A DNA stretch of 64,000 bases, taken from NCBI GenBank assembly GCA_964016885.1, contig OZ024743.1, positions 34,410,001 to 34,474,000 of the forward strand, given 5' to 3'. Source of the DNA: Eledone cirrhosa (Eukaryota). The position numbers were made by a program, and so were the translations under genes. The notes under the pieces are model-generated. The model was not told where the DNA came from, searched no databases, and saw only the letters and a list, made by a program, of their open reading frames with translations. Below, in pieces: positions 1-30,139 of this stretch; within the stretch, counting starts at the first letter, position 1; each line of letters begins with the position of its first letter.

Positions 1-134
1 TCTCGCTGTCTTTTATATATATATATCTGCGATCTAACTTACTCGGTCCTCAATGTTGCCATTGACTGACCGGCGGTCAAAAATAATACAGATACAATAT
101 AGACAAACACATATATATATAGTTTACATAATTT

Positions 135-175
135 ACATAAATCTTTCGTTGCACATCTGCAACATCGTCAGTGGT
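135..175 (-). ncRNA. Minimal type I hammerhead motif in PLE-A pLTR
   Basis: CA-CUGACGA-U-GUUGCA(GAUG)UGCAAC-GAAA-GAUU-UA-UG; perfect stem II, weak stems I and III. Confidence 0.65.
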
Positions 176-442
176 GTTATATTCATTGTTCCTCCTGTTG
201 TGTTGTATGTCTACGCCATTTTTTTGTTCAGTCTGTCTATATATTTATTTATTTATTTGCTTGTTTGTTTATCTTATTTTATTTTGTCTTCTTTGCGCAT
301 GCGTTTGCGTGTGTGTATAGTGTTATGTGTGATGTGTGACTAGTGTGTATAGTGTTGTGTCTGCTGGGTGACTAGTGTGTGTTTATGTGCTTGTGTATGT
401 ATTTATTTATCTTATTTTATTTTATTTAATTTACTTATTTAT

Positions 443-3400
443 TTATACTTCTCTTAGGTCAGTGTTGTTTGTTTGGGTGTTGTTGTTGTTCCACTCATTC
501 TTTCTGTTTAGCTTTGGTCTTCTAATTTCTATTTCACTGGCCTCTCTGATTTGCCTATCTGCTGGGTCATTCCTATGTTTAGATATTATTCTAATTTCTA
601 TGTTGTCTATGTTACCGTCATGTTGTTGTCTAGCATGTTCGTATAGTACTGACCCGTTTTTTCGTCCTTTTAGTTCCCCCCAGTGTTGGTCTATCCTTTC
701 ACCTATGCTACGAGCTGTCTCACCTATGTATGTTGTTGTCGTGTTTCTGCAAGTACCCTCTGTACATCTTATGCTATAGACTACGTTTCTAGTTTTACAG
801 TTTATCCGGGGGTTCACCTTACATATGATACATTTCCTATTGGTACAGTGGGTTTTCTTAAAAGGGTAGGTTTTGCTGATCAGGGATTTTATGGTGGTTC
901 CTGGCTTTTCTACCACCTTTATTTTTAAGTGGGTCTTTCTCAGGGCCTTTCTACACTGGTTAGCTAATTTCCCTCCAGGGGTGGCGTCCACAAACATGAC
1001 ACTCTGATATCTCTGGTTGTCGTACCATGATGTGGCCTTCCCTATCTTATGTCTAGCCCTATCTAAGCTATTCCATGATTTGCTCCTGTATAGTGGGCAA
1101 ATTCCTTTCATGTCCAGTTCTATGAGGGTCTTATACTTTTCCATGGCTCCTTCGTATACTCTGACTCTGTCTCTTTGGTTGTAGCCAGAGAACTGCATGC
1201 GGTTGATGAAGTGTTGGATGTGTCCTTCCATTTCTGTTGGGTCGCACATGCTGGACACATTCTTCATCACTCGTACCAAATCTGCAATCAGAATATTAAA
1301 CTTAGCACTACTGGACATTGCTGAGTTTTTGAGTATCAGGTATTTGGAGGCCATGGGTTTAGCATAGTGTGAGTGGAGAATTTGGGCTCTCTCGTCTATA
1401 GTGTTAATCCAGAGTTCTGTGTCTAATACAGGTAGTCTATTGTTAGGGTGTTTGGAAGGGAAGTCTATAGTTACAGTTATACTCTGGTGTATGGAATTAG
1501 CTATCTGCTGGATGCTTTCCATCGTGCTACGTTCTAAATCAAACTTGTTAGTGCTCTCTAGTGGGGGTGTTCTTATAACTATATTGATATCGTCTACATA
1601 ACGAGAGTACATGATGAGGTCTATGGAGCTTTCATTAAGGAGATCTTTAAGTCTCCTTTCCCACCATACCATGAAAAGGTTGGCAACATCACCAGCTATG
1701 CTGACGCCGATGGCTGCTCCCTCATTTTGGGTGTAGATTTTCTCATTGAACTTAAATATGTGGCCCTTTAGGGTAGTTTTGATACTAGCCCCTATTGCAT
1801 GTGCGACCATTTTTCTTACCTGATCAGTGTTTTGGGGGGTCCGTATAGCTTTGGTCCACCCAATCCACCTTCCTATGGGAGTCTTTTTAGCCATTGAGGT
1901 TATGGTGGGGGGTCTACCTCTTATAGGTCTACTAGAGCAGAAACATCTAAGGTCATGGCTGTCTAGGTAGTCAGTGTCGTAGGTAAGTCTAAGTAGGAGG
2001 CCCAGTTTGTCTGTGTCGACGTCGCAGAACTCCACCTCACTCTCAATGATCATCTCCACACATCTTTTCACAGCAAAATCAATGTTAATGGATGGGTACA
2101 GTGACACCACATCCATGCTGCCTTTTATGCAGTTGGATAGGCTCCTGTTTTTGTTGCACTCACTGATTCTGCTGAGGAGGTCCTCTGTACTTTCACATAC
2201 ATCTGGGGACATCTTGATTATGGGGCGTATAACCATTGAGAGGAAGTAGGAGATCCTGTAGTTGCTAGCTATATTAGCTCCGCATACGGGTCTTGTTGGT
2301 GGTCCTGTTGTCGGGTCGTCGACTGTCTTGTGGTCTTTGCGGAGCCCATACAAGGGTGGTATGCCATTGTTAGACGCCTGGAAGTTGTTGGCAGTGCGTC
2401 TGCTTGGCTTTAGGATGTCAGTCCACATCATCATGTGAGCGTTGAGGATTTTTTCTCTCCCATCGTGTGTTAGTTGTGCAACTTCGCTCGTGTTGGTGAT
2501 GTGGGGTTGCATTGCCTCGATGTAGTTCGGCATGCTATCTATTGACATCCTACCAGACTTATCTGTGGGTAGACACACTACCTCACCATCCCTTGTGCGC
2601 TGCTTGAGGCTAACCAAGCCTTCTACAGGTTTTATCCCAAGTTGTTGGGCCTCTGGTCTGCTCTGTCTCATAGTGTACCTGTCTACTACTTGTCTAATCT
2701 TATTTCTAGCTATGGTGAACTGTGCCTCCGTCTCGTCATCTATTTGCTGTGGTATGCAAACTCTTTTATTAAAGGGTAACCTCGTAGGATAGATATTACC
2801 CATCTTATATGTTTTGTCAGCTGGGTTGAAAAATAGTTTCTCTAAGGGGTTGTCGTTATTTCTATCGTCATAGTTGTGTGTGTTGCTATTATTGTTATCA
2901 TGGTGGTTGTTGTTGTTTCTATCATTAGCATTAATATTATTATTGTTATGATTGCTAGATGTATTGTTGTTTACTTCACCGTTATTGTTGTTGTTGTTAC
3001 TGCTATTTCTACCATTGTGGTTGTTACTATTATTATGTTTCTTGTTTTTGTTGATGTTGCTACATGTACTATTTCCATTATTACCACTGTGGCTATTGTT
3101 GTTGTTGTTGTTGTTCGTATTGTTACCGTTATTACTACTGTGGTCACTGTTGCTGTGTCTGTGGTTAACGTTTCTATTATTATTATTATTGTGGTTGTTG
3201 TTGTTCTGTCTATCGCTAGTATTATTGCCATTATCACTATTTCTCACTTTCCTGCCATTGTTATGGTTATGGCTGTTATTTCTATACCCAGAGTTATTGT
3301 TTATATTACTACTACCGTTATTATTGTTGTTGTTGTTTACCTTTGCATTCCAACGTATTTTTGTGAAACACTTTTCCAGCTCCGTTTTGCATTCCATAGG

Positions 3401-3964
3401 GTTAATCTTTTTGTAGATGGCAAATTTTGGTGGTAACTTTAGGATTTGTTGTTCTTGTTCACTGATTAAAGTGTTCCCATAGATATTTACTGTGTGGTCA
3501 TTGGTAAATTCTTCCGGTAGTTTTACATCACTCATACGGATGTTGTCGATGTTATCTGGGTATTTTTGAGAATATTCGATTTTCCTTTCTTGTAGTTTTT
3601 TCTTATTCATCCATTCTAATTTCTTCTTGAAATGCCTACAGCATTCGTTTTGAGCATATTTCGTTTCGCGTCGGATGACGCTCATGAAGTCATCTCTCTC
3701 GTTTGCTGTGATGAGATTTCGGATTTCCTTACCGTTGATGCGTTTTTGTCTGTAGAGTGCGTTGACTTTTGTGTATGTTGTTCTTTTCATATTAACTGTT
3801 ATTGTGTGTTTTAGCCGTTCAGCTTGTGTTTTGTTCAATAATAAATTATTTACTTGTTTTGATATGTTTGTTGTGTATGTTTTGGAGGAAACACAGTGTT
3901 TTAAGAAGCGGATTTGTTCTGTTGTTATTGTAGTTTTTATATAACAGAGAACAGTGTCTTTCAA
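443..3964 (-). CDS. PLE polyprotein: reverse transcriptase + Cys-rich linker + GIY-YIG endonuclease (Neptune/Nematis-like layout)
   Basis: RT motifs MDVVSLYPSI, QNEGAAIGVSIAGDVANLFM, YSRYVDDINI, LPVLDTEL; CTNRKCIIC; [33 protein letters not shown]. The frame is open to 4018 and the track's start codon is TTG, so the true start is unclear. Confidence 0.93.
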   Translation of the reverse strand: MKDTVLCYIKTTITTEQIRFLKHCVSSKTYTTNISKQVNNLLLNKTQAERLKHTITVNMKRTTYTKVNALYRQKRINGKEIRNLITANERDDFMSVIRRETKYAQNECCRHFKKKLEWMNKKKLQERKIEYSQKYPDNIDNIRMSDVKLPEEFTNDHTVNIYGNTLISEQEQQILKLPPKFAIYKKINPMECKTELEKCFTKIRWNAKVNNNNNNNGSSNINNNSGYRNNSHNHNNGRKVRNSDNGNNTSDRQNNNNHNNNNNRNVNHRHSNSDHSSNNGNNTNNNNNNNSHSGNNGNSTCSNINKNKKHNNSNNHNGRNSSNNNNNNGEVNNNTSSNHNNNNINANDRNNNNHHDNNNSNTHNYDDRNNDNPLEKLFFNPADKTYKMGNIYPTRLPFNKRVCIPQQIDDETEAQFTIARNKIRQVVDRYTMRQSRPEAQQLGIKPVEGLVSLKQRTRDGEVVCLPTDKSGRMSIDSMPNYIEAMQPHITNTSEVAQLTHDGREKILNAHMMMWTDILKPSRRTANNFQASNNGIPPLYGLRKDHKTVDDPTTGPPTRPVCGANIASNYRISYFLSMVIRPIIKMSPDVCESTEDLLSRISECNKNRSLSNCIKGSMDVVSLYPSINIDFAVKRCVEMIIESEVEFCDVDTDKLGLLLRLTYDTDYLDSHDLRCFCSSRPIRGRPPTITSMAKKTPIGRWIGWTKAIRTPQNTDQVRKMVAHAIGASIKTTLKGHIFKFNEKIYTQNEGAAIGVSIAGDVANLFMVWWERRLKDLLNESSIDLIMYSRYVDDINIVIRTPPLESTNKFDLERSTMESIQQIANSIHQSITVTIDFPSKHPNNRLPVLDTELWINTIDERAQILHSHYAKPMASKYLILKNSAMSSSAKFNILIADLVRVMKNVSSMCDPTEMEGHIQHFINRMQFSGYNQRDRVRVYEGAMEKYKTLIELDMKGICPLYRSKSWNSLDRARHKIGKATSWYDNQRYQSVMFVDATPGGKLANQCRKALRKTHLKIKVVEKPGTTIKSLISKTYPFKKTHCTNRKCIICKVNPRINCKTRNVVYSIRCTEGTCRNTTTTYIGETARSIGERIDQHWGELKGRKNGSVLYEHARQQHDGNIDNIEIRIISKHRNDPADRQIREASEIEIRRPKLNRKNEWNNNNTQTNNTDLREV

Positions 3965-4185
3965 TAACCTTTCAGCTGAGCAGCAAGCACTAATGACACT
4001 AGCTGGAGGGTCATGCGACTATGCCAGAATAACACTATACACACTACGGTCAAGAACGCATGCGCAAAGAAGACAAAATAAAATAAGATAAACAAACAAG
4101 CAAATAAATAAATAAATATATAGACAGACTGAACAAAAAAAATGGCGTAGACATACAACACAACAGGAGGAACAATGAATATAAC

Positions 4186-4226
4186 ACCACTGACGATGTT
4201 GCAGATGTGCAACGAAAGATTTATGT
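4186..4226 (+). ncRNA. Hammerhead motif in the inverted PLE-A pLTR
   Basis: Same motif as 135-175, opposite strand. Confidence 0.65.
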
Positions 4227-4257
4227 AAATTATGTAAACTATATATATATGTGTTTA

Positions 4258-5167
4258 TATAGTTTACATAATTTACATAAATCTTTCGTTGCACATCTGC
4301 AACATCGTCAGTGGTGTTATATTCATTGTTCCTCCTGTTGTGTTGTATGTCTACGCCATTTTTTTTGTTCAGTCTGTCTATATATTTATTTATTTATTTG
4401 CTTGTTTGTTTATCTTATTTTATTTTGTCTTCTTTGCGCATGCGTTTGCGTGTGTGTATAGTGTTATGTGTGATGTGTGACTAGTGTGTATAGTGTTGTG
4501 TCTGCTGGGTGACTAGTGTGTGTTTATGTGCTTGTGTATGTATTTATTTATCTTATTTTATTTAATTTAATTTACTTATTTATTTATACTTCTCTTAGGT
4601 CAGTGTTGTTTGTTTGGGTGTTGTTGTTGTTCCACTCATTCTTTCTGTTTAGCTTTGGTCTTCTAATTTCTATTTCACTGGCCTCTCTGATTTGCCTATC
4701 TGCTGGGTCATTCCTATGTTTAGATATTATTCTAATTTCTATGTTGTCTATGTTACCGTCATGTTGTTGTCTAGCATGTTCGTATAGTACTGACCCGTTT
4801 TTTCGTCCTTTTAGTTCCCCCCAGTGTTGGTCTATCCTTTCACCTATGCTACGAGCTGTCTCACCTATGTATGTTGTTGTCGTGTTTCTGCAAGTACCCT
4901 CTGTACATCTTATGCTATAGACTACGTTTCTAGTTTTACAGTTTATCCGGGGGTTCACCTTACATATGATACATTTCCTATTGGTACAGTGGGTTTTCTT
5001 AAAAGGGTAGGTTTTGCTGATCAGGGATTTTATGGTGGTTCCTGGCTTTTCTACCACCTTTATTTTTAAGTGGGTCTTTCTCAGGGCCTTTCTACACTGG
5101 TTAGCTAATTTCCCTCCAGGGGTGGCGTCCACAAACATGACACTCTGATATCTCTGGTTGTCGTACC

Positions 5168-5169
<2 letters not shown>
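4258..5169 (-). mobile_element. Second, 5'-truncated PLE-A copy (GIY-YIG domain + pLTR, hammerhead at 4275-4315)
   Basis: Near-identical to ~117-1028; truncated at WYDNQRY and joined to a (TA)n tract. Confidence 0.93.
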
Positions 5170-5239
<70 letters not shown>

Positions 5240-5300
5240 GTATATATATATGTATGTATATATATATGTATATATGTATATATGTATGAATATATATATG

Positions 5301-5333
<33 letters not shown>

Positions 5334-5474
5334 GTATGTATGTATATATGTATGTATATATATATATATGTATATATGTATATATATATATGTATATATA
5401 TATGTATATATATATGTATATATATGTATATATGTATATATGTATATATGTATATATATATATATGTATATATG

Positions 5475-5509
<35 letters not shown>

Positions 5510-5518
5510 GTATATATG

Positions 5519-5549
<31 letters not shown>

Positions 5550-5676
5550 GTATATATGTATATATATATATATGTATATATGTATATATATATATGTATA
5601 TACATATATGTATATATATATATGTATATATATATGTATATATATATATATGTATATATATATATCTGTATATATG

Positions 5677-5735
<59 letters not shown>

Positions 5736-5956
5736 ATGTATATATATATATGTACATATATATGTATATGTATATATGTATATATATGTATATATGTATA
5801 TATATGTATATGTATATATGTATATGTATATATATGTATATATGTATATATTTGTATATGTATATATGTATATGTATATATATATGTATATATATATATG
5901 TATATATATGTATATGTATATATGTATATGTATATATATATATATGTATATATATG

Positions 5957-6019
<63 letters not shown>

Positions 6020-6204
6020 GTATATATATATGTATATGTATATATATATGTGTATATATATATGTATATATATATGTATATATATATGTATATGTATATA
6101 TATATGTGTATATATATATGTATATATATATGTGTATATATATATGTATATATATATGTGTATATATATATATATGTATATATATATATGTATATATATA
6201 TATG

Positions 6205-6249
<45 letters not shown>

Positions 6250-6286
6250 GTATATATGTATATATATATATATATGTATATATGTA

Positions 6287-6317
<31 letters not shown>

Positions 6318-6338
6318 ATATATATATGTATATATATA
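5170..6338. repeat. (TA)n microsatellite with TG interruptions
   Basis: Read directly from the sequence. Confidence 0.97.
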
Positions 6339-6570
6339 TAAATGTAAGTATGCATGTATACGTACATACATATATGTATACAGACGTACAGTAGCATGCA
6401 CATATATATATATATATACATATGCATACAGGTACACATACATATATGCACGTATCAGTTTAGCGGCGCTAACGTCGCTTTGTTCGTTTGTAAACAAACT
6501 GAACAGCCTGAATTTATGCCATACGGTGTTAAGGCAACCACGTCACCTTTTTGTTCAACACTGACACAGG

Positions 6571-6615
6571 AACGATGTACTAGTTTCAAGCTTGTTAGCT
6601 ATCATCAGCACCGTT
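6571..6615 (-). ncRNA. Minimal type I hammerhead ribozyme (first of 19 copies at 6571+454n, last 14743-14787)
   Basis: AACGGUG-CUGAUGA-U-AGCU(AACA)AGCU-U-GAAA-CUAG-UA/CAUCGUU: 7-bp stem I, complete core, 4-bp stem II, palindromic ACUAGU stem III, GUA cleavage triplet. Confidence 0.88.
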
Positions 6616-6643
6616 TACCCATCTGCCAGATAGTTGAACGTTC

Positions 6644-6696
6644 GAAAGTATATACTTTCCTTATGAAAATTAACGGCTGAGCAGCCTAATTTGCAT
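6644..6696 (-). promoter_or_regulatory. Candidate internal promoter in each monomer: octamer ATGCAAAT (6696-6689) and TATATA (6654-6649)
   Basis: Perfect octamer in ATATGCAAATTA context, ~35 nt before a TATATA inside the palindrome GAAAGTATATACTTTC, ~35 nt before the ribozyme; function is inferred. Confidence 0.4.
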
Positions 6697-9600
6697 ATTG
6701 AGTGAGTTAAATCGATCAGGCATACCGAAAACGATAAATTGAAACAAAATGAAAACGAAATTTCATTTCTCACTCTTAGTATGGCACTTACTTAAATGTA
6801 AGTATGCATGTATACGTACATACATATATGTATACAGACGTACAGTAGCATGCACATATATATATATATATACATATGCATACAGGTACACATACATATA
6901 TGCACGTATCAGTTTAGCGGCGCTAACGTCGCTTTGTTCGTTTGTAAACAAACTGAACAGCCTGAATTTATGCCATACGGTGTTAAGGCAACCACGTCAC
7001 CTTTTTGTTCAACACTGACACAGGAACGATGTACTAGTTTCAAGCTTGTTAGCTATCATCAGCACCGTTTACCCATCTGCCAGATAGTTGAACGTTCGAA
7101 AGTATATACTTTCCTTATGAAAATTAACGGCTGAGCAGCCTAATTTGCATATTGAGTGAGTTAAATCGGTCAGGCATACCGAAAACGATAAATTGAAACA
7201 AAATGAAAACCAAATTTCATTTCTCACTCTTAGTATGGCACTTACTTAAATGTAAGTATGCATGTATACGTACATACATATATGTATACAGACGTACAGT
7301 AGCATGCACATATATATATATATATACATATGCATACAGGTACACATACATATATGCACGTATCAGTTTAGCGGCGCTAACGTCGCTTTGTTCGTTTGTA
7401 AACAAACTGAACAGCCTGAATTTATGCCATACGGTGTTAAGGCAACCACGTCACCTTTTTGTTCAACACTGACACAGGAACGATGTACTAGTTTCAAGCT
7501 TGTTAGCTATCATCAGCACCGTTTACCCATCTGCCAGATAGTTGAACGTTCGAAAGTATATACTTTCCTTATGAAAATTAACGGCTGAGCAGCCTAATTT
7601 GCATATTGAGTGAGTTAAATCGGTCAGGCATACCGAAAACGATAAATTGAAACAAAATGAAAACGAAATTTCATTTCTCACTCTTAGTATGGCACTTACT
7701 TAAATGTAAGTATGCATGTATACGTACATACATATATGTATACAGACGTACAGTAGCATGCACATATATATATATATATACATATGCATACAGGTACACA
7801 TACATATATGCACGTATCAGTTTAGCGGCGCTAACGTCGCTTTGTTCGTTTGTAAACAAACTGAACAGCCTGAATTTATGCCATACGGTGTTAAGGCAAC
7901 CACGTCACCTTTTTGTTCAACACTGACACAGGAACGATGTACTAGTTTCAAGCTTGTTAGCTATCATCAGCACCGTTTACCCATCTGCCAGATAGTTGAA
8001 CGTTCGAAAGTATATACTTTCCTTATGAAAATTAACGGCTGAGCAGCCTAATTTGCATATTGAGTGAGTTAAATCGATCAGGCATACCGAAAACGATAAA
8101 TTGAAACAAAATGAAAACGAAATTTCATTTCTCACTCTTAGTATGGCACTTACTTAAATGTAAGTATGCATGTATACGTACATACATATATGTATACAGA
8201 CGTACAGTAGCATGCACATATATATATATATATACATATGCATACAGGTACACATACATATATGCACGTATCAGTTTAGCGGCGCTAACGTCGCTTTGTT
8301 CGTTTGTAAACAAACTGAACAGCCTGAATTTATGCCATACGGTGTTAAGGCAACCACGTCACCTTTTTGTTCAACACTGACACAGGAACGATGTACTAGT
8401 TTCAAGCTTGTTAGCTATCATCAGCACCGTTTACCCATCTGCCAGATAGTTGAACGTTCGAAAGTATATACTTTCCTTATGAAAATTAACGGCTGAGCAG
8501 CCTAATTTGCATATTGAGTGAGTTAAATCGGTCAGGCATACCGAAAACGATAAATTGAAACAAAATGAAAACGAAATTTCATTTCTCACTCTTAGTATGG
8601 CACTTACTTAAATGTAAGTATGCATGTATACGTACATACATATATGTATACAGACGTACAGTAGCATGCACATATATATATATATATACATATGCATACA
8701 GGTACACATACATATATGCACGTATCAGTTTAGCGGCGCTAACGTCGCTTTGTTCGTTTGTAAACAAACTGAACAGCCTGAATTTATGCCATACGGTGTT
8801 AAGGCAACCACGTCACCTTTTTGTTCAACACTGACACAGGAACGATGTACTAGTTTCAAGCTTGTTAGCTATCATCAGCACCGTTTACCCATCTGCCAGA
8901 TAGTTGAACGTTCGAAAGTATATACTTTCCTTATGAAAATTAACGGCTGAGCAGCCTAATTTGCATATTGAGTGAGTTAAATCGGTCAGGCATACCGAAA
9001 ACGATAAATTGAAACAAAATGAAAACGAAATTTCATTTCTCACTCTTAGTATGGCACTTACTTAAATGTAAGTATGCATGTATACGTACATACATATATG
9101 TATACAGACGTACAGTAGCATGCACATATATATATATATATACATATGCATACAGGTACACATACATATATGCACGTATCAGTTTAGCGGCGCTAACGTC
9201 GCTTTGTTCGTTTGTAAACAAACTGAACAGCCTGAATTTATGCCATACGGTGTTAAGGCAACCACGTCACCTTTTTGTTCAACACTGACACAGGAACGAT
9301 GTACTAGTTTCAAGCTTGTTAGCTATCATCAGCACCGTTTACCCATCTGCCAGATAGTTGAACGTTCGAAAGTATATACTTTCCTTATGAAAATTAACGG
9401 CTGAGCAGCCTAATTTGCATATTGAGTGAGTTAAATCGGTCAGGCATACCGAAAACGATAAATTGAAACAAAATGAAAACGAAATTTCATTTCTCACTCT
9501 TAGTATGGCACTTACTTAAATGTAAGTATGCATGTATACGTACATACATATATGTATACAGACGTACAGTAGCATGCACATATATATATATATATACATA

Positions 9601-12600
9601 TGCATACAGGTACACATACATATATGCACGTATCAGTTTAGCGGCGCTAACGTCGCTTTGTTCGTTTGTAAACAAACTGAACAGCCTGAATTTATGCCAT
9701 ACGGTGTTAAGGCAACCACGTCACCTTTTTGTTCAACACTGACACAGGAACGATGTACTAGTTTCAAGCTTGTTAGCTATCATCAGCACCGTTTACCCAT
9801 CTGCCAGATAGTTGAACGTTCGAAAGTATATACTTTCCTTATGAAAATTAACGGCTGAGCAGCCTAATTTGCATATTGAGTGAGTTAAATCGGTCAGGCA
9901 TACCGAAAACGATAAATTGAAACAAAATGAAAACGAAATTTCATTTCTCACTCTTAGTATGGCACTTACTTAAATGTAAGTATGCATGTATACGTACATA
10001 CATATATGTATACAGACGTACAGTAGCATGCACATATATATATATATATACATATGCATACAGGTACACATACATATATGCACGTATCAGTTTAGCGGCG
10101 CTAACGTCGCTTTGTTCGTTTGTAAACAAACTGAACAGCCTGAATTTATGCCATACGGTGTTAAGGCAACCACGTCACCTTTTTGTTCAACACTGACACA
10201 GGAACGATGTACTAGTTTCAAGCTTGTTAGCTATCATCAGCACCGTTTACCCATCTGCCAGATAGTTGAACGTTCGAAAGTATATACTTTCCTTATGAAA
10301 ATTAACGGCTGAGCAGCCTAATTTGCATATTGAGTGAGTTAAATCGATCAGGCATACCGAAAACGATAAATTGAAACAAAATGAAAACGAAATTTCATTT
10401 CTCACTCTTAGTATGGCACTTACTTAAATGTAAGTATGCATGTATACGTACATACATATATGTATACAGACGTACAGTAGCATGCACATATATATATATA
10501 TATACATATGCATACAGGTACACATACATATATGCACGTATCAGTTTAGCGGCGCTAACGTCGCTTTGTTCGTTTGTAAACAAACTGAACAGCCTGAATT
10601 TATGCCATACGGTGTTAAGGCAACCACGTCACCTTTTTGTTCAACACTGACACAGGAACGATGTACTAGTTTCAAGCTTGTTAGCTATCATCAGCACCGT
10701 TTACCCATCTGCCAGATAGTTGAACGTTCGAAAGTATATACTTTCCTTATGAAAATTAACGGCTGAGCAGCCTAATTTGCATATTGAGTGAGTTAAATCG
10801 GTCAGGCATACCGAAAACGATAAATTGAAACAAAATGAAAACGAAATTTCATTTCTCACTCTTAGTATGGCACTTACTTAAATGTAAGTATGCATGTATA
10901 CGTACATACATATATGTATACAGACGTACAGTAGCATGCACATATATATATATATATACATATGCATACAGGTACACATACATATATGCACGTATCAGTT
11001 TAGCGGCGCTAACGTCGCTTTGTTCGTTTGTAAACAAACTGAACAGCCTGAATTTATGCCATACGGTGTTAAGGCAACCACGTCACCTTTTTGTTCAACA
11101 CTGACACAGGAACGATGTACTAGTTTCAAGCTTGTTAGCTATCATCAGCACCGTTTACCCATCTGCCAGATAGTTGAACGTTCGAAAGTATATACTTTCC
11201 TTATGAAAATTAACGGCTGAGCAGCCTAATTTGCATATTGAGTGAGTTAAATCGGTCAGGCATACCGAAAACGATAAATTGAAACAAAATGAAAACGAAA
11301 TTTCATTTCTCACTCTTAGTATGGCACTTACTTAAATGTAAGTATGCATGTATACGTACATACATATATGTATACAGACGTACAGTAGCATGCACATATA
11401 TATATATATATACATATGCATACAGGTACACATACATATATGCACGTATCAGTTTAGCGGCGCTAACGTCGCTTTGTTCGTTTGTAAACAAACTGAACAG
11501 CCTGAATTTATGCCATACGGTGTTAAGGCAACCACGTCACCTTTTTGTTCAACACTGACACAGGAACGATGTACTAGTTTCAAGCTTGTTAGCTATCATC
11601 AGCACCGTTTACCCATCTGCCAGATAGTTGAACGTTCGAAAGTATATACTTTCCTTATGAAAATTAACGGCTGAGCAGCCTAATTTGCATATTGAGTGAG
11701 TTAAATCGGTCAGGCATACCGAAAACGATAAATTGAAACAAAATGAAAACGAAATTTCATTTCTCACTCTTAGTATGGCACTTACTTAAATGTAAGTATG
11801 CATGTATACGTACATACATATATGTATACAGACGTACAGTAGCATGCACATATATATATATATATACATATGCATACAGGTACACATACATATATGCACG
11901 TATCAGTTTAGCGGCGCTAACGTCGCTTTGTTCGTTTGTAAACAAACTGAACAGCCTGAATTTATGCCATACGGTGTTAAGGCAACCACGTCACCTTTTT
12001 GTTCAACACTGACACAGGAACGATGTACTAGTTTCAAGCTTGTTAGCTATCATCAGCACCGTTTACCCATCTGCCAGATAGTTGAACGTTCGAAAGTATA
12101 TACTTTCCTTATGAAAATTAACGGCTGAGCAGCCTAATTTGCATATTGAGTGAGTTAAATCGGTCAGGCATACCGAAAACGATAAATTGAAACAAAATGA
12201 AAACGAAATTTCATTTCTCACTCTTAGTATGGCACTTACTTAAATGTAAGTATGCATGTATACGTACATACATATATGTATACAGACGTACAGTAGCATG
12301 CACATATATATATATATATACATATGCATACAGGTACACATACATATATGCACGTATCAGTTTAGCGGCGCTAACGTCGCTTTGTTCGTTTGTAAACAAA
12401 CTGAACAGCCTGAATTTATGCCATACGGTGTTAAGGCAACCACGTCACCTTTTTGTTCAACACTGACACAGGAACGATGTACTAGTTTCAAGCTTGTTAG
12501 CTATCATCAGCACCGTTTACCCATCTGCCAGATAGTTGAACGTTCGAAAGTATATACTTTCCTTATGAAAATTAACGGCTGAGCAGCCTAATTTGCATAT

Positions 12601-15207
12601 TGAGTGAGTTAAATCGGTCAGGCATACCGAAAACGATAAATTGAAACAAAATGAAAACGAAATTTCATTTCTCACTCTTAGTATGGCACTTACTTAAATG
12701 TAAGTATGCATGTATACGTACATACATATATGTATACAGACGTACAGTAGCATGCACATATATATATATATATACATATGCATACAGGTACACATACATA
12801 TATGCACGTATCAGTTTAGCGGCGCTAACGTCGCTTTGTTCGTTTGTAAACAAACTGAACAGCCTGAATTTATGCCATACGGTGTTAAGGCAACCACGTC
12901 ACCTTTTTGTTCAACACTGACACAGGAACGATGTACTAGTTTCAAGCTTGTTAGCTATCATCAGCACCGTTTACCCATCTGCCAGATAGTTGAACGTTCG
13001 AAAGTATATACTTTCCTTATGAAAATTAACGGCTGAGCAGCCTAATTTGCATATTGAGTGAGTTAAATCGATCAGGCATACCGAAAACGATAAATTGAAA
13101 CAAAATGAAAACGAAATTTCATTTCTCACTCTTAGTATGGCACTTACTTAAATGTAAGTATGCATGTATACGTACATACATATATGTATACAGACGTACA
13201 GTAGCATGCACATATATATATATATATACATATGCATACAGGTACACATACATATATGCACGTATCAGTTTAGCGGCGCTAACGTCGCTTTGTTCGTTTG
13301 TAAACAAACTGAACAGCCTGAATTTATGCCATACGGTGTTAAGGCAACCACGTCACCTTTTTGTTCAACACTGACACAGGAACGATGTACTAGTTTCAAG
13401 CTTGTTAGCTATCATCAGCACCGTTTACCCATCTGCCAGATAGTTGAACGTTCGAAAGTATATACTTTCCTTATGAAAATTAACGGCTGAGCAGCCTAAT
13501 TTGCATATTGAGTGAGTTAAATCGGTCAGGCATACCGAAAACGATAAATTGAAACAAAATGAAAACGAAATTTCATTTCTCACTCTTAGTATGGCACTTA
13601 CTTAAATGTAAGTATGCATGTATACGTACATACATATATGTATACAGACGTACAGTAGCATGCACATATATATATATATATACATATGCATACAGGTACA
13701 CATACATATATGCACGTATCAGTTTAGCGGCGCTAACGTCGCTTTGTTCGTTTGTAAACAAACTGAACAGCCTGAATTTATGCCATACGGTGTTAAGGCA
13801 ACCACGTCACCTTTTTGTTCAACACTGACACAGGAACGATGTACTAGTTTCAAGCTTGTTAGCTATCATCAGCACCGTTTACCCATCTGCCAGATAGTTG
13901 AACGTTCGAAAGTATATACTTTCCTTATGAAAATTAACGGCTGAGCAGCCTAATTTGCATATTGAGTGAGTTAAATCGGTCAGGCATACCGAAAACGATA
14001 AATTGAAACAAAATGAAAACGAAATTTCATTTCTCACTCTTAGTATGGCACTTACTTAAATGTAAGTATGCATGTATACGTACATACATATATGTATACA
14101 GACGTACAGTAGCATGCACATATATATATATATATACATATGCATACAGGTACACATACATATATGCACGTATCAGTTTAGCGGCGCTAACGTCGCTTTG
14201 TTCGTTTGTAAACAAACTGAACAGCCTGAATTTATGCCATACGGTGTTAAGGCAACCACGTCACCTTTTTGTTCAACACTGACACAGGAACGATGTACTA
14301 GTTTCAAGCTTGTTAGCTATCATCAGCACCGTTTACCCATCTGCCAGATAGTTGAACGTTCGAAAGTATATACTTTCCTTATGAAAATTAACGGCTGAGC
14401 AGCCTAATTTGCATATTGAGTGAGTTAAATCGGTCAGGCATACCGAAAACGATAAATTGAAACAAAATGAAAACGAAATTTCATTTCTCACTCTTAGTAT
14501 GGCACTTACTTAAATGTAAGTATGCATGTATACGTACATACATATATGTATACAGACGTACAGTAGCATGCACATATATATATATATATACATATGCATA
14601 CAGGTACACATACATATATGCACGTATCAGTTTAGCGGCGCTAACGTCGCTTTGTTCGTTTGTAAACAAACTGAACAGCCTGAATTTATGCCATACGGTG
14701 TTAAGGCAACCACGTCACCTTTTTGTTCAACACTGACACAGGAACGATGTACTAGTTTCAAGCTTGTTAGCTATCATCAGCACCGTTTACCCATCTGCCA
14801 GATAGTTGAACGTTCGAAAGTATATACTTTCCTTATGAAAATTAACGGCTGAGCAGCCTAATTTGCATATTGAGTGAGTTAAATCGGTCAGGCATACCGA
14901 AAACGATAAATTGAAACAAAATGAAAACGAAATTTCATTTCTCACTCTTAGTATGGCACTTACTTAAATGTAAGTATGCATGTATACGTACATACATATA
15001 TGTATACAGACGTACAGTAGCATGCACATATATATATATATATACATATGCATACAGGTACACATACATATATGCACGTATCAGTTTAGCGGCGCTAACG
15101 TCGCTTTGTTCGTTTGTAAACAAACTGAACAGCCTGAATTTATGCCATACGGTGTTAAGGCAACCACGTCACCTTTTTGTTCAACACTTTTGTTCAACAC
15201 TTTTGTT

Positions 15208-15407
15208 CAAAGCGACGTTAGCGCCGCTAAACTGATACGTGCATATATGTATGTGTACCTGTATGCATATGTATATATATATATATATGTGCATGCTACT
15301 GTACGTCTGTATACATATATGTATGTACGTATACATGCATACTTACATTTAAGTAAGTGCCATACTAAGAGTGAGAAATGAAATTTCGTTTTCATTTTGT
15401 TTCAATT

Positions 15408-15410
<3 letters not shown>
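15208..15410 (+). repeat. Inverted 203-bp arm of the 454-bp monomer closing the array
   Basis: Reverse complement of 6734-6936; preceded by a stuttered 13-mer TTTTGTTCAACAC (15175-15210); runs into (TA)n. Confidence 0.95.
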
Positions 15411-15833
<423 letters not shown>

Positions 15834-20054: not shown

Positions 20055-20267
20055 TTCGTTTCTGAATTTGTTTAGCAAGATTCTTTATCTGAGATCGTGT
20101 GTTGAAACCGATATTGTTATACTTTGGGAGGGTCATGTTGCCAATAAGAAACACACGCACCAGTTGCTTCACTTCAATTTATTATATATTTATAAATTTA
20201 CAAATTTATAAATTTATAAATCTCTGGTTGGTTGGTTGGTTCCACAACCAGATAGTTGTTTATATAT

Positions 20268-20312
20268 AGTCATAGTCCTTTCGTCACACACTCTGCAACC
20301 TCTTCAGTGACT
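20268..20312 (-). ncRNA. Minimal hammerhead, PLE-B left arm
   Basis: AGUCA-CUGAAGA-G-GUUGCA(GAGUG)UGUGAC-GAAA-GGAC-UA/UGACU; 5-bp stem I. Confidence 0.8.
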
Positions 20313-21203
20313 GGGGATTCCTTTCTTTGTTTCTGTGCCTCTCCTTTGTTCTGTCCTACGCCATTTTGTTTCTGTGTGTGTGTTGTGTGCTCAGTTTGCG
20401 CATGCGCCACATCCGGGTGTCTGTGTGTGTTTATGTTCATTTATCTATTTGTTTATTTATTTATTTATTTACATGTTATTGGTTGGTTGTTTGTTCTATG
20501 TGCGTGTGTGTTTTCATTTTGTCCTTAATTGTAAGTTGTGATGTTGCTGTTCCACTCATATTTTCTATTTAATTTTGGTTGTAATTCTTTTATGTTTATT
20601 GCCTCTGTAATTTGTCTAAACATTGCATCTTTTCTGTGTGTAGATTCTATTTTTATTTCTATGTTCTCTAATTTACCCTTGTGTTCTATCTTAGCTTGTT
20701 GGTAGAGTACAGATGATTCTTTATTATCTTGAAGGTCTCGCCAGTGTTCATTTATCCGTTCCCCTATACTACGAGCTGTCTCACCTATGTACACTATATT
20801 TTTGTTTCTACATTGTCCTTCAGTACATCTTATGCTATACACTACATTTCTAGTTTTACAGTTAATATGGGGGTTTAGTTTACAGATTATACATTTCTTA
20901 TCTATACAGGGAGTCTTTGAAAAGGGTATGTCTTGCTAATAAGTGTTTTTATGGATGTACCTGGTCTTTCTACTATCTTAATATTGAGTTTATGTTTATT
21001 TAGGGCCCTTCTAAATTTGTAGGCTAGTTCGCCTCTAGGGGTTGTATCGATGAACATTACACTCTGGTATTTATTGCTATCATACCATGAGTTTATTCTA
21101 TTAGCCTTGTTCCTAGTTCTTTCTATTCTATTCCAAAATTTGCTCCTGTACAAGGGGCAGGTCCCATTTATGTCATTTATGTCATTTATGTCATTATTTA
21201 CCA

Positions 21204-21865
21204 TGGTAAATAATGACATAAATGGGACCTGCCCCTTGTATAGGAGCACATTTTGGAATAGAATAGAAAGAACTAGGAACAAGGCTAATAGAATAAACTC
21301 ATGGTATGATAGCAATAAATACCAGAGTGTAATGTTCATCGATACAACCCCTAGAGGCGAACTAGCCTACAAATTTAGAAGGGCCCTAAATAAACATAAA
21401 CTCAATATTAAGATAGTAGAAAGACCAGGTACCTCCGTAAAAACACTTATTAGCAAGACATACCCTTTTCAAAGACCCTCATGTATAGATAAGAAATGTA
21501 TAACCTGTAAAATAAGCCCCCATATTAACTGTAAAACTAGAAATGTAGTGTATAGCATAAGATGTACTGAAGGACAATGTAGAAACAAAAATATAGTGTA
21601 CATAGGTGAGACAGCTCGTAGTATAGGGGAACGGATAAATGAACACTGGCGAGACCTTCAAGATAATAAAGAATCATCTGTACTCTACCAACATGCTAAG
21701 ATAGAACACAAGGGTAAATTAGAGAACATAGAAATAAAAATAGAATCTACACACAGAAAAGATGCAATGTTTAGACAAATTACAGAGGCAATAAACATAA
21801 AAGAATTACAACCAAAATTAAATAGAAAATATGAGTGGAACAGCAACATCACAACTTACAATTAA
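21204..21865 (+). pseudogene. 5'-truncated PLE-B ORF, GIY-YIG endonuclease domain (right arm; left arm frameshifted)
   Basis: [40 protein letters not shown]. Confidence 0.9.
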
Positions 21866-22077
21866 GGACAAAATGAAAACACACACGCACATAGAACAAA
21901 CAACCAACCAATAACATGTAAATAAATAAATAAATAAACAAATAGATAAATGAACATAAACACACACAGACACCCGGATGTGGCGCTTGCGCAAACTGAG
22001 CACACAACACACACACAGAAACAAAATGGCGTAGGACAGAACAAAGAAGAGGCACAGAAACAAAGAAAGGAATCCCC

Positions 22078-22122
22078 AGTCACTGAAGAGGTCACAGAGT
22101 GTGTGACGAAAGGACTATCACT
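22078..22122 (+). ncRNA. Minimal hammerhead, PLE-B right arm
   Basis: AGUCA-CUGAAGA-G-GUCACA(GAGUG)UGUGAC-GAAA-GGAC-UA/UCACU; one stem I mismatch. Confidence 0.75.
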
Positions 22123-22270
22123 ATATATAAACAACTATCTGGTTGTGAAACCAACCAACCAACCAGAAATTTATAAATTTGTAAATTTATAAATATATAA
22201 TAAATTGAAGTGAAAGCAACTGGTGCGTGTGTTTCTTATTGGCAACATGACCCTCCCAAAGTATAACAAT

Positions 22271-23409: not shown

Positions 23410-23555
<146 letters not shown>

Positions 23556-23587
23556 AGATCAAAAGATGGTTAAAGGAGTTCCATGTA

Positions 23588-23654
23588 TTTTATTATGCGC
23601 ATTTCAAAAACAAACATCATCATGCAATAATATTTGTGTTTTCATCAGATAAAA
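23588..23654 (-). ncRNA. Type I hammerhead with long stem II, PLE-C left arm
   Basis: Reverse complement of 27200-27266. Confidence 0.85.
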
Positions 23655-24428
23655 CAGGAGAACATGATATGAAGGCTAAAAAACACTTGTGGATAGTGCA
23701 GTTTTAAATCAACATATGAAAAGAGGTTTTAGATTGATGTGTGATATTGGGAAAAAATGTTTTATTTAGAGAGTGGGGGTTGGAAAGGATGAAAAGGGAA
23801 GGAGATGAGAGGGAGAGATGGGTGATAGAGAGAAAGAGATAGTTTTTATAACTGAGAGGAGATATATTTTTTACATAGAGAGGTTGAAAACCGTTGGAAG
23901 ATACTGTATAAATTAAAAATTTTGAAAATTAACGAAGGGAGGATATGTGCGAGGAAAAAATATTTTATTTAGGGAGGGGAGGGGATGAAAAAAAGGGGGA
24001 GGAGATGAGAGTGAAGGTGGAGAGGGAGAGATGGGTGATAGAGAGAAAGAGATAGTTTTTATAACTGAGAAAAAGATATATTGTTTTAACATAGAGAGGT
24101 TGGGAACCGTTGGAAGATAATGTATAAATTAAAGGAATTTGAAAATTAACGAAGGGAAATTATGTATGAGATAGAGAGAAAAAAATAATAAATTAAGGAT
24201 GAAATTGAGATTAAAAAGATTTATGATAGAGAGAAAAAATAATAATGATTGCGGATGAATATTGTATATGTTATGATTTTACAAGGTGAAGATAGAATGA
24301 GGGTAATGAGTAAACAAGTATTATAGAGTGTATAATGCCCTTTAAAGTAAGGTAGATGGGTATATTTTAAAGAGGTGTATGTATATGTGCCTTTGAGAAA
24401 AGATTCTAAATTGATAAAGAATTGAATA

Positions 24429-25832
24429 TTAACTGTATACTTTGTGAAAAGTTCTATGGAATTTATGCAGGCAGATAGAAAACAAATCTGTGCGTCTATT
24501 TATTATAGAATCTAGGTTAGAGATAATGGTAAATTTTTCATTTAGGCAGAGATTACAGATTTTAGATAGAGAGCTGTTCAAGTATGAGGATGCAGAAGAA
24601 ATCTTCTTCCAAAAGATGGTATATTTAATGTTTTTGTCTTTTAAGGACCATATGAGTTCTGAGAGAGCAGTGTTAGTTCTTTTAAGTTTGTATTTGAAAG
24701 ATGAATGATGATTATAGAGACGAGCTTTAAAAGAGGTGGAAGTGGAGCCAAAATAGGTGAAGGAATTGGTGCTAGTTATAATTTTACATTCATAAATTAA
24801 GTTTTTATCGAGACAATGGTTGTTGAGAGGACATTTATTTTTAATGCGGCAGTTGCAATTAGAGAGATTATTAATGAGTGACCTAGTGTTATCTATAGAA
24901 GGAATTGGATTGGAGAAGTTGTTTGCGATAGGAATAATAGGAATAATAGTTTCTTGATTTAGAGTTGGATTATGAACATTTAGCGAAGTTGTGTTTGACG
25001 TTGTATTTGGGTTTACAGAAGTTAGCCTAGGGTTTACAATGACGTCGGGAGTACTATTACTGTTATTATGAAATTCAATATTGGAAGGAAGAGATTTAGT
25101 ATTTAATATTTTATTGTTGTGTTTAGAGATGATGTTGGAAATATTGGAGGATGTAGAATACGAAAATTTGATGGTGTGTTTGTTAAATATTTTACTATAG
25201 ATATGTGAGGGAGGGAAGCATTTATTTAAGGCACTAAAGAATAATTTAGGAATATTGTTATTAATAGAGATGGAGAAAGGAGCATTATACCAGATTATGT
25301 TTTTGTATCTAGGTCTTTTATTAAAATTATTGGAATGGTCATGATTAATTATTCTACTGTAAGTTTTTCTAGAATTTGTTTCTTTACTATATTTGATTTT
25401 ATCTGGATAGCCGGCTTTAGAAAGTGCGTTATTATAGTAATTGGCGTTAGCATCAAAGATGTTTTTATTAGAAGATATGTTAGATATTCTATTTCCAATA
25501 TTATTAACTATAGCATTCTTGATATTGGTAGGATGGTTAGATTTAAAGTTAACATAATTAAGGTTCTCATTGTTTTTATGGTAAGGGTAATATAGGCCAG
25601 TGTCAAGATTAAGAGATACATCCAAGAAATTAGCTAGTTTGATACTATTATCAAATTCAATTTTTAGGTTATGTTGGTTAAAGAGATTACGTATATTGTT
25701 CTTAATAATATTAAGGTTGACTATATTGCAATTTAGGATAGTAAAGAGTCCATCGTCACGATAAATTCCACCGCGAAGTTGAGGAATTTTCCGACTCAAA
25801 GAGTTCAAAATTTTCCGACTCAAAGAGTTCAA
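24429..25832 (-). pseudogene. 5'-truncated PLE-C ORF: RT C-terminal part + Cys-rich linker + GIY-YIG
   Basis: GIYRDDGL, NFLDVSL, IIWYNAPFS, CNCRIKNKCPLNNHC, LIYECKI..YFGSTSTSFKARLYNH, CNLCLNEK; clearly a different PLE lineage from A and B. Confidence 0.9.
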
Positions 25833-27199
25833 AAACTTAATTTATGAATGTAAAATTATAACTAGCACCAATTCCTTCACCTATTTTGGCTCCACTTCCA
25901 CCTCTTTTAAAGCTCGTCTCTATAATCATCATTCATCTTTCAAATACAAACTTAAAAGAACTAACACTGCTCTCTCAGAACTCATATGGTCCTTAAAAGA
26001 CAAAAACATTAAATATACCATCTTTTGGAAGAAGATTTCTTCTGCATCCTCATACTTGAACAGCTCTCTATCTAAAATCTGTAATCTCTGCCTAAATGAA
26101 AAATTTACCATTATCTCTAACCTAGATTCTATAATAAATAGACGCACAGATTTGTTTTCTATCTGCCTGCATAAATTCCATAGAACTTTTCACAAAGTAT
26201 ACAGTTAATATTCAATTCTTTATCAATTTAGAATCTTTTCTCAAAGGCACATATACATACACCTCTTTAAAATATACCCATCTACCTTACTTTAAAGGGC
26301 ATTGTACACTCTATAATACTTGTTTACTCATTACCCTCATTCTATCTTCACCTTGTAAAATCATAACATATACAATATTCATCCGCAATCATTATTATTT
26401 TTTCTCTCTATCATAAATCTTTTTAATCTCAATTTTATCCTTAATTTATTATTTTTTTCTCCCCATCAACGAACTCATTATTAATACATATTAACTCTTT
26501 ATTCGCATATATTATCAATTCAACCAATATACAAACTTTAACTTCACATTATTTTTCTCAAATCCTTCTACACACAAACCTTAATAATTTTTCTCTTCGT
26601 TAATTTTGAAATTGCCACAATATATACATTTCTTTTTTTGACGTTAGAATATTCATCCACAATTATTATTTTTTTCTCTCTATCTTCATACATAATTTCC
26701 CTTCGTTAATTTTCAAATTCTTTTAATTTATACATTATCTTCCAACGGTTCCCAACCTCTCTATGTTAAAACAATATATCTTTTTCTCAGTTATAAAAAC
26801 TATCTCTTTCTCTCTATCACCCATCTCTCCCTCTCCACCTTCACTCTCATCTCCTCCCCCTTCTTTTCATCCCCCCCTCCCTAAATAAAATATTTTTTCC
26901 TCGCACATATCCTCCCTTCGTTAATTTTCAAAATTTTTAATTTATACAGTATCTTCCAACGGTTTTCAACCTCTCTATGTAAAAAATATATCTCCTCTCA
27001 GTTATAAAAACTATCTCTTTCTCTCTATCACCCATCTCTCCCTCTCATCTCCTTCCCTTTTCATCCTTTCCAACCCCCCCCCTCTAAATAAAACATTTTT
27101 TTCCCAATATCACACATCAATCTAAAACCACTTTTCATATGTTGATTTAAAACTGCACTATCCACAAGTGTTTTTTAGCCTTCATATCATGTTCTCCTG

Positions 27200-27266
27200 T
27201 TTTATCTGATGAAAACACAAATATTATTGCATGATGATGTTTGTTTTTGAAATGCGCATAATAAAA
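27200..27266 (+). ncRNA. Type I hammerhead with long stem II, PLE-C right arm
   Basis: UUUUAU-CUGAUGA-[AAACACAAAUAUUAUU GCAU GAUGAUGUUUGUUUUU]-GAAA-UGCGCA-UA/AUAAAA; palindromic AUGCGCAU stem III. Confidence 0.85.
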
Positions 27267-27390
27267 TACATGGAACTCCTTTAACCATCTTTTGATCTTA
27301 TATTATGCATACTCCAGTCCTACAAACTGTAGAGTGCTTCTTATCCGATATCTGCATTGCTTTATTGTACTACAATAAAACTCACCTCCT

Positions 27391-28197
<807 letters not shown>

Positions 28198-29545
28198 TAA
28201 CGAAGGAAATGTGGTAAGGAACCAGGTGGACCATAACGCACCAAAGTACTCAATACTTGAGGTAGTGGAGTGGGTAATAGGAACCAGTAAGACCCCGACA
28301 GCTGAGCTCAAGCCGTTTCGACGGCTAATTCTGGACTAAATGAAAATTTATCCTGGTATTTAAATAGCCGATCTTCTCAAGGGGTAATTCCATATATGGT
28401 CAAAGTGATTGTCAAAAATCAGTAGTAATTCTGTGGTTGCAAATTAGTAGGGGAGATGGTGGCTAAACCTGCCAGTAGGAGAAAGAGGGGAGGGGGTGGA
28501 GTAGACCCAATCAAGCGTTGGTAGTGCCAGCTACAGCTGGGCATGAGGTCAAAGAAGATACAGGGGAGGGGGAGGGGGAGGAAGTCGGAACGGTAGGTAG
28601 AACAATGGGGGGTAGAAATATATAGGAAAGAAAAAATACTGAGAGTGAAGAAAAGCAAATAAGTGTAAAGAAAAAAGTAAAGTAAATTAAATTCTACGAC
28701 CTAGGTCTCAGGCTATTGTTAGGCTAGAATAAAATAAAGAAAGAAAGAAAGAAGTAAAGAAATAAATAAATAAAGAAATAACGAAATAAGTAAAAGAACT
28801 AGGTGGGACGGATTAGGCAAGGACCCTTTTAAGAGGTATAAGTACGTAAATGATACGGTGACGGGTCAACAAAAGGGGCCAAAATACTAAAGAGACTACC
28901 ACGAAAGAGACTACCACGAAAGAGACTACCACGAAAGAGACTACCACGAAATAAACAATAAAGGTTTCCATCTCGGGCCAGCAACGACCCAGTGCAGCAA
29001 AGTGAACTTGTACGAGATAATAATTCTGAGTCCCGAGAAAAATATATACTAATGCTAACTCTAAAAGATCTAAAACAAGCTACATGAAAGTTCGTACGAA
29101 ATAAAGGTAGAATACGGAGAAATAAATTCAGAATCCACCCCGCCCAGAAGAAAAGCGAAGCAAGAAATACTGAAACGAAAAAATAAGGCATAAGTGCCAC
29201 TAAGAAATATAGAGGGCACAGAGAATAGTGGGAGCGGTCGGAAAAAGGGGGCAAGTATCCGGGGTCTAAGCCAACTGCTATAAAGGGCGGAGTCCGCCAA
29301 ATCTATCATAGACTAGGGGAGGGGGTGGTGGGGGTACTAAGGCTACATGGGGCCAAAGGGCAGCCTCGGGTGGGCGAGAAAAGACGCCGACAAAGGAGAA
29401 GAGCTGGGGTAGAAGGACTAAGGAGAGAGGGGGGAAGGAAATAAAGGAAGCGATAAAAGAATACAAAGAAGATCTTACGTCTTCCTTGGCAAGCAGGGGT
29501 TACCCATTGCAAAATCGGCAAGTGGGGTGTTATAGCCCTAGTCTA
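28198..29545. mobile_element. Unclassified ~1.35-kb non-coding interspersed element between (TA)n tracts
   Basis: Its left ~80 bp recur inverted and diverged at 63111-63190, also TA-flanked; internal 15-bp x4 repeat at 28891-28950. Confidence 0.5.
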
Positions 29546-30016: not shown

Positions 30017-30052
30017 TCTTCTGATGAAGGAGTAGGTTCCGAAACGTTAAGA
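30017..30052 (+). ncRNA. Minimal hammerhead in an orphan pLTR-like remnant (~29925-30135)
   Basis: UCUU-CUGAUGA-A-GGAG(UAGG)UUCC-GAAA-CG-UU/AAGA; palindromic ACGU stem III. Confidence 0.75.
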
Positions 30053-30139
30053 CCCTCTTCCTGCTATATCAAGCGTTAACCTAATATATACCTTCCTCAT
30101 ACTGTACCGATTGTGTTGTTATTTCTGTTTTCCTTTTAC

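Follow-up and report, generated by a model that had tools for sequence, protein, structure and literature searches.

How does a nearly uniform 9-kb array of a 454-bp non-coding unit, with a hammerhead ribozyme in every full repeat, come to lie inside a (TA)n tract? The question is raised by a 64,000-nt stretch of the Eledone cirrhosa genome (contig OZ024743.1, forward strand, positions 34,410,001-34,474,000), called the window below; positions given without a contig or locus name are those of the window, and the genome searched is the 3.0-Gb assembly. We consider it likely that the array is an insertion of a retrozyme without long terminal repeats (non-LTR retrozyme), written into (TA)n by a Penelope-like reverse transcriptase (RT) that started at both ends of the target break and used a likely circular RNA as its template; a few copying events at the DNA level probably altered the array afterwards. 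The evidence comes from the array itself and from its sibling loci elsewhere in the genome.

The array and its ribozyme

The initial annotation had described about 19.5 almost identical 454-bp units without a credible open reading frame, and both points hold. Tandem Repeats Finder (TRF) places the repeat at 6339-15188 (period 454, 19.5 copies, 99% matches); among the 19 full units 14 are identical, four carry G>A at unit position 376 (6715, 8077, 10347 and 13071, plus strand) and a single one carries G>C at position 418 (7211, plus strand). The longest Met-started frames are of 44 codons on the ribozyme strand and 108 codons on the other, and none of the open frames holds the RT plus GIY-YIG reading frame by which an autonomous Penelope-like element (PLE) is recognized. 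G or C occupies 105 of the 262 scored unit positions, i.e. less than 50%. The unit folds far better than its shuffles (z -6.75, 0/100), a result for which an AU-repeat hairpin is partly responsible; this long, (AU)n-centred hairpin, predicted at 6340-6450 on the minus strand and recurring each 454 bp, is the stretch of the unit with most A>G changes in the edited sibling arrays described below.

The units form a main arm (6340-15188, ribozyme strand minus), whose outer end lies at about unit position 1 (site B) and whose inner end lies at position 223. An inverted arm of 203 nt (15208-15410, ribozyme strand plus) is an exact copy of unit positions 395-454 followed by 1-143; it shares the short microsatellite allele of the main arm and has its outer end at about position 395 (site A). 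The two arms meet in a 13-nt stutter of 2.8 copies (15175-15210), and the whole is embedded in (TA)n, with target tracts at 5171-6340 on the left and 15408-15831 on the right (TRF; for the stutter and the left tract also inspection of the sequence). The embedding, the stuttered junction and the inverted arm, all noted initially, are therefore real features of the locus. Both (TA)n flanks occupy the place where a target-site duplication (>4 bp in non-LTR retrozymes, when present) would lie. Between site A (~395) and site B (~454/1) stretches a 60-nt 'tail' with a short hairpin (6734-6793, minus strand).

When both strands of the entire window were scanned for the hammerhead structure, 21 matches emerged, 19 in the array (6615-6571 + 454n, minus strand) and two in a neighbouring element, PLE-B. 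A type I hammerhead is present in 19/19 full units, the first at 6571-6615 with a predicted cut at 6578/6577 and the last at 14743-14787, which confirms the 454-bp recurrence on the minus strand that had been reported. The motif consists of a 7-bp stem I, CUGAUGA, a U.U followed by a 4-bp stem II, GAAA, a palindromic ACUAGU stem III and a GUA cleavage site. The earlier label of a 'minimal' ribozyme needs refining: that type has a helix II of 7-8 bp, a helix I of 4-5 bp and an extra base after position 9, whereas here helix I has 7 bp and helix II 4 bp plus U.U, so that, judged by its helix lengths, the array ribozyme is closer to the canonical animal hammerhead than to the minimal type of PLEs. 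The Rfam scan returned no match at the gathering threshold; the best ribozyme match was weak (Hammerhead_HH9, 18.5 bits, E 0.13, gathering 52), and microRNA matches, all sub-gathering and coinciding with the AT hairpin, were rejected. Counts of hammerhead variants, in which overlapping loci are included, gave no useful compensatory change and were not used. A plus-strand hammerhead-like motif with a 4-bp stem I occurs elsewhere in the window, at 30021-30060.

A dispersed retrozyme family

Judged by its sequence, the array is a member of the non-LTR retrozymes, a class already known, as the initial annotation had proposed: each unit carries a hammerhead, is non-coding and has a GC content below 50%, and the family is dispersed and multicopy. 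A 31-nt ribozyme core has 10,718 exact matches genome-wide (reversed control, 0), a marker of the young lineage to which the window array belongs has 4,498, and the short microsatellite allele has 96, of which 21 are in the window array. Loci range from monomers to multimers, with arms of <1 to 45 units. For an unselected set we retrieved all 53 loci behind the first 100 of the 10,718 core matches; about 128 distinct loci were covered overall, those beyond the 53 being chosen via lineage or variant markers, and even the 53 were chosen through the ribozyme core. The median number of differences between units is 2 within an arm, 4 between the arms of one locus and 12 between loci. A candidate locus-private marker, 378T, was rejected, with 472 matches across many arrays.

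Older diverged relatives of the unit were seen at five loci (L073, L088, L148, L079 and L045), where they are sometimes fused to young units within one array. Most of the unit is also covered by contigs of runs X1 and X6, coded as two different organisms, hence the family is not confined to the Eledone assembly. All four runs compared consist of contigs, which carry no information on strand, ends or circles, and a look-up of RNA runs for the unit listed none.

Ends and joints of the insertions

It had been asked initially whether sibling loci are TA-embedded, with inverted arms and variable phase. The loci of the genome-wide core search show the first two features, while the third holds for inner ends only. 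With arm ends mapped to the last exact 12-mer, the outer ends (on the ribozyme strand, its 3′ ends) are fixed: in the 53 unselected loci 75 of 88 lie at site A (43) or site B (32), 12 in the internal AT tract and one elsewhere, and across all loci the figure is 182/212. TA-like repeats adjoin 83/88 outer ends in the unselected loci and 199/212 in all loci. The two sites, about 60 nt apart, are used one per arm: among 77 joined pairs there are 58 A+B, 2 A+A, no B+B and 17 other combinations, whereas independence predicts 37% of A+A or B+B. Adjacent opposite arms meet inner end to inner end in 79/82 cases, and the window array obeys the same rule, with B at the left and A at the right.

Inner ends scatter round the unit. 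Only 1/225 falls at positions 230-246, near the cut site, against 8.4 expected, a count that is lowered by choosing loci through the ribozyme core; among loci chosen via a marker outside the ribozyme it is 0/35. Units cross the cut site cleanly: among 582 units, positions 232-246 hold three single indels, those at 241-269 being excluded by the anchor used for parsing. Of the insert-free joints, 30/48 have microhomology of at least 2 nt (random 17.8%), and inserted or unassigned bases are found in 31/79 joints. Both arms of a locus share the same haplotype in 21/24 loci (chance 0.125).

Tails, 5′ inversions and a (TA)n bias are described for PLEs (PMC8557442), one of which, in vitro, uses two internal RT start sites and extends both target strands, with AT-rich targets (PMC11167929). 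The combination of fixed paired outer ends beside (TA)n and scattered inner ends is the tail-plus-inversion signature of Penelope; the paired A/B ends, the head-to-head arms and the TA-like flanks support the Penelope-type insertion suggested initially.

Multi-unit arms and probably edited siblings

A sibling at C3:290.03 Mb has 10+10 units in its two arms, all with a variant that has 59 matches genome-wide, and one other substitution among 19 parsed units. Two further two-arm siblings are nearly uniform (C1:337.17 Mb, 16+2 units; C1:123.11 Mb, 6+8 units). It follows that about 20 units can come from one template.

In three other siblings the units repeat sets of RNA-editing-type changes. Counts refer to shared differences from an unedited relative, outside the AT tract, T>C being A>G on the ribozyme strand. 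In L126 (C1:160404300-160412900) two unit types, A and B, alternate over 11 units, and in L149 (C2:69557000-69565000) two unit types alternate over 8 units; in each, 13/13 shared changes are T>C, so that both have period 2. L164 (C1:365501500-365508500) has period 1: 14 T>C recur in all 5 parsed units, accounting for 14/16 shared changes. A further locus, L146, repeats with period 3. Editing by ADAR favours a 5′ neighbour U or A rather than G; for the 40 A>G changes of L126, L149 and L164, the 5′ neighbour on the RNA is U or A in 37 cases and G in none. A pair of changes of L126 type B has 6 matches genome-wide, all inside L126 and spaced by 966-970 bp. The long arm of L126 opens with a type B tail, and the short arm begins immediately behind that tail, in type A; two primers set 60 nt apart on a single molecule would give this arrangement.

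Edits fall on single molecules, so that the best reading of such exact repeats is a monomer or dimer circle copied again and again, and the three arrays are likely, from their unit sequences, to be rolling-circle reverse transcripts of monomer and dimer circles that had been edited. An alternative, a single pass over an edited dimer followed by in-register DNA duplication, could account for one locus but would be needed twice, both times without a phase break. At the level of the family, the RNA-templated formation of multimers claimed initially therefore finds support in the templates shared by two arms and in the periodic A>G sets of siblings. The genome-wide ratio of 48C to 49G (175 vs 59) was not used as a test of editing, because one long array dominates it. 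At L133 (C2:328963800-328969600), unit 2 of both arms has A>G at the last A of GAAA, the order of units being mirrored.

The sequence of events would then be the following. Arrays would be transcribed on the ribozyme strand, as the strand-specific A>G of siblings suggests; a weak, dimer-type hammerhead would cut incompletely and give monomers, dimers and longer pieces, which a host ligase would close, as is known for other retrozymes. A PLE endonuclease would open (TA)n, and the two DNA ends would prime on the same RNA at the two fixed sites, 60 nt apart, at which the arms end. Each cDNA would pass the cut site for the variable number of rounds seen in the arms, presumably by strand displacement, and the cDNA 3′ ends would be joined head to head through the 1-5 nt microhomologies or short templated inserts, e.g. 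the stutter, that mark the joints, probably by a repair pathway. Finally, later duplication, loss or conversion of units would have spread the variant at position 376 in the window array.

On balance, we lean slightly towards a bolder version, in which the copies across the genome preserve, as fossils, the rolling-circle reverse transcription of an animal: a dimer of the Penelope type would grip one covalently closed monomer, dimer or trimer RNA, prime both (TA)n ends at sites 60 nt apart, write up to about 20 units per event and stamp private ADAR edits at each round, and most of the 9-kb window array would have been so made, from a multimeric circle.

Rival templates and the history of the window array

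The observations of this and the next three paragraphs include those that weigh against copying from circles. Folding predictions place the active form of the ribozyme above the energy minimum (monomer -2.7 vs -13.4 kcal/mol, dimer -22.2 vs -29.5 kcal/mol), and eight of nine predicted frog retrozyme dimers failed to cleave (bioRxiv 10.64898/2026.07.22.740005). No PLE partner with shared sequence was found among the three PLEs of the window or at the chimeric joints checked. Hyper-edited arrays are 3 of ~128 loci, two of them found by aimed searches, and the window array itself is without editing; there is no A>G excess among singletons (23 A>G vs 31 U>C of 325) or among rare changes in the hairpin (22 vs 22).

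One possibility is that the templates were uncleaved linear multimeric transcripts, copied by a PLE from two internal sites with no circle, the window array being a copy of a mixed parent's long transcript. Uncleaved, unprocessed multimers are the main substrate of the anole PLE studied in PMC11167929, the ribozyme is predicted to be weak, and such a template also fits the two arms of L133 and of C1:69.58 Mb, whose units come in mirrored order, as well as the aperiodic variant discussed next. However, editing of a linear multimer would strike each unit on its own, while the edit sets recur unchanged in 11, 8 and 5 units, and the type B combination of L126 has no parent elsewhere in the genome. 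Nor does any other array of the short-microsatellite type in this assembly carry the variant at position 376, so that the mixed parent array is not seen. We regard linear templates as unlikely.

This variant, 376A, constrains the history of the window array. It has 19 exact matches genome-wide, of which four are in the window array, in units 1, 4, 9 and 15, i.e. at spacings of 3, 5 and 6 (chance 4×10−8), and no period fits. One homogeneous circle would give 376A in all or no units, and a small multimer circle would give a period; the window array thus cannot be an unaltered copy of a lone monomer circle, and either copying at the DNA level or a multimer template of mixed units is required. The idea that this position is a hotspot of mutation or of RT error was considered and rejected: the 15 loci where 376A recurred came from a query that contained it, while an unbiased sample gave 1/89 units and the genome 19 matches. 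On the simplest readings the array is a long RT product, its template perhaps of about five units, with at least two later gains or losses of units or a later conversion. The claim that it is one reverse-transcription product is consequently upheld for its ends and, plausibly, for most of its length, but not for all of its units.

The variant also fits a different origin, in which a PLE-type insertion of one to a few units grew in place by unequal crossover or slippage, its length then being no guide to whether a rolling circle was copied. The above preprint proposes such local amplification, and 376A, common to four units, would be its product. DNA-level growth does occur, given the block duplications in the long siblings on C11 (45+2 units), C4:212.9 Mb (at least 41) and C7 (34). 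The 19 units exceed the longest (15) of the 59 young arms among those listed, with a geometric tail of about 0.2% per arm. In-place growth is also suggested by an old C3 array of 60-plus units with fixed changes. Against it stand young insertions whose arms, in either orientation, have several units and share one private allele (10+10, 6+8, 4+4), arms that are longer in younger than in older lineages, and two loci where A and B units alternate strictly and hardly anything else has changed. As an explanation of the array it seems to us slightly less probable still than linear templates; it probably accounts for part of the window array, not for the family.

The old C3 array (L154-L155, C3:12268001-12288000, extending to at least 12.31 Mb) has about 60 or more units, and 15/15 units shown have T>C at 175, 239 and 261. 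Because the change at 239 makes GUG of the GUA at the cleavage site, this is probably an array of dead ribozymes grown at the DNA level.

Finally, near-identical units between two long (TA)n tracts invite the suspicion that length or variant pattern is an artefact of assembly, through expansion or a mosaic of two alleles. This is very improbable, as there are comparable two-arm siblings of 18-20 units with locus-specific unit lengths, and the ends of the window array fit the family rule exactly.

Neighbouring elements and candidate partner enzymes

Three PLEs lie in the window. PLE-A (28-5170) is Neptune-like, with a 1191-codon frame (443-4018) containing an Asn-rich insert and a CX4CxxC linker, an inverted pseudo-long terminal repeat (pLTR; 4030-4256) and a truncated second copy (4584-5170). 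The array had been placed beside an intact PLE: the intact frame is there, but the nearest neighbour is the truncated copy, 1.17 kb of (TA)n away. PLE-B (23555-27395) is truncated and Hydra-like, with a CxCX5C linker, inverted pLTRs whose hammerheads (23656-23586, minus; 27198-27268, plus) are palindromic in stem III, and, at its right end, a tail of about 90 nt. PLE-C (20055-22268), which lies in (TA)n, consists of two 3′ fragments of a Neptune-like PLE placed head to head, with a hammerhead near 20307 (minus) and a tail of about 60 nt at its left end. Both tails were judged by eye, and the clade labels rest on linker motifs, Pfam having given no family for PLE-A and PLE-B and GIY-YIG below the cut-off for PLE-C. 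As had been noted, the layout of the array resembles that of PLE-B and PLE-C, each with a tail and an inverted arrangement. The possibility that the 454-bp unit is a pLTR of one of these elements was rejected, with no match better than E 0.79 among the window PLEs.

Copies 98-100% identical to PLE-A and PLE-B adjoin retrozyme loci, so that both look recently active, and both use (TA)n. On this sequence evidence, an element of the PLE-A or PLE-B type could be the partner enzyme; the adjacency in the window reflects only the shared (TA)n target. A search for the partner through chimeric joints gave scattered cases and was not decisive. At L064:2270-3150 a retrozyme arm is joined without (TA)n to Hydra-type sequence in the endonuclease region, through a template switch or a later deletion, and one retrozyme flank resembles PLE-A ends. 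The end (28277-28340) of an element at 28200-29540 forms the opposite arm of the retrozyme insertions L058 and L081, which are possibly chimeric, two-template insertions.

The remainder of the window includes, at 46638-57614 on the minus strand, two elements of the long interspersed nuclear element type (endonuclease, RT and zf-RVT), with a frame at 52351-55869 open for 1172 codons, and two minisatellites, of 25 bp in 79 copies (33639-35501) and of 29 bp in 64 copies (36725-38576).

Comparison with known systems

The class is known, and the sibling loci give unusually direct genomic evidence on a copying mechanism that is still open. Rolling-circle reverse transcription of retrozymes by PLEs is a proposal of the work on non-LTR retrozymes (PMC7229834, PMC7761336), and the 2026 preprint, which supports by homology a descent of frog retrozymes from PLEs, argues for local DNA amplification. 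The formation of PLE inversions and tails is listed as unexplained in the literature. With its roughly ten thousand units, its paired fixed priming sites and its A>G changes in phase, this young family opens both questions to experiment on a defined 454-nt substrate, and the same genome offers two candidate active enzymes and a predicted product. If the reading is true, satellite-length arrays can arise whole from RNA, and RNA edits can turn into heritable DNA in bulk. In the literature, subscription papers, preprint supplements, Dfam and Repbase aside, we found no account of this family, of retrozyme insertions with two arms or of edits that recur within such arrays.

The non-LTR retrozymes of coral, mussel and axolotl have a stated range of 150-450 bp, and the Eledone unit is at or above it. 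Their circles were demonstrated by Northern blots, whereas those of the Eledone family are predicted from DNA; in PMC7229834 and PMC7761336 we found no description of four features of the Eledone family, namely insertion into (TA)n, a pair of fixed priming sites, arms joined head to head and recurrent A>G. Frog retrozymes, like the Eledone family, co-occur with PLEs and range from monomers to long multimers. In the frog study, 24/57 families are tied by homology to known repeats, nearly all of them PLE pLTRs, whereas the Eledone unit has no pLTR homology to the three window PLEs and the structure of its ends points to multimers made by RT. The minimal hammerheads of PLEs (PMC4209133) share with the array motif a palindromic helix III and a predicted activity as dimers, but have a long helix II and a short helix I, against 4 bp and 7 bp here.

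Further parallels are found in endonuclease-positive PLEs (Poseidon PAc, PMC11167929; the Neptune and Hydra clades, PMC8557442), which share with the Eledone family two RT starts, a tail at one end, a 5′ inversion and a hammerhead, together with extension of both target strands at AT-rich or (TA)n targets. The tail is longer in the Eledone family, about 60 nt as compared with the 30-40 nt described for these elements, and, unlike them, the Eledone unit has no RT or endonuclease frame and is present as many rounds of one short unit.

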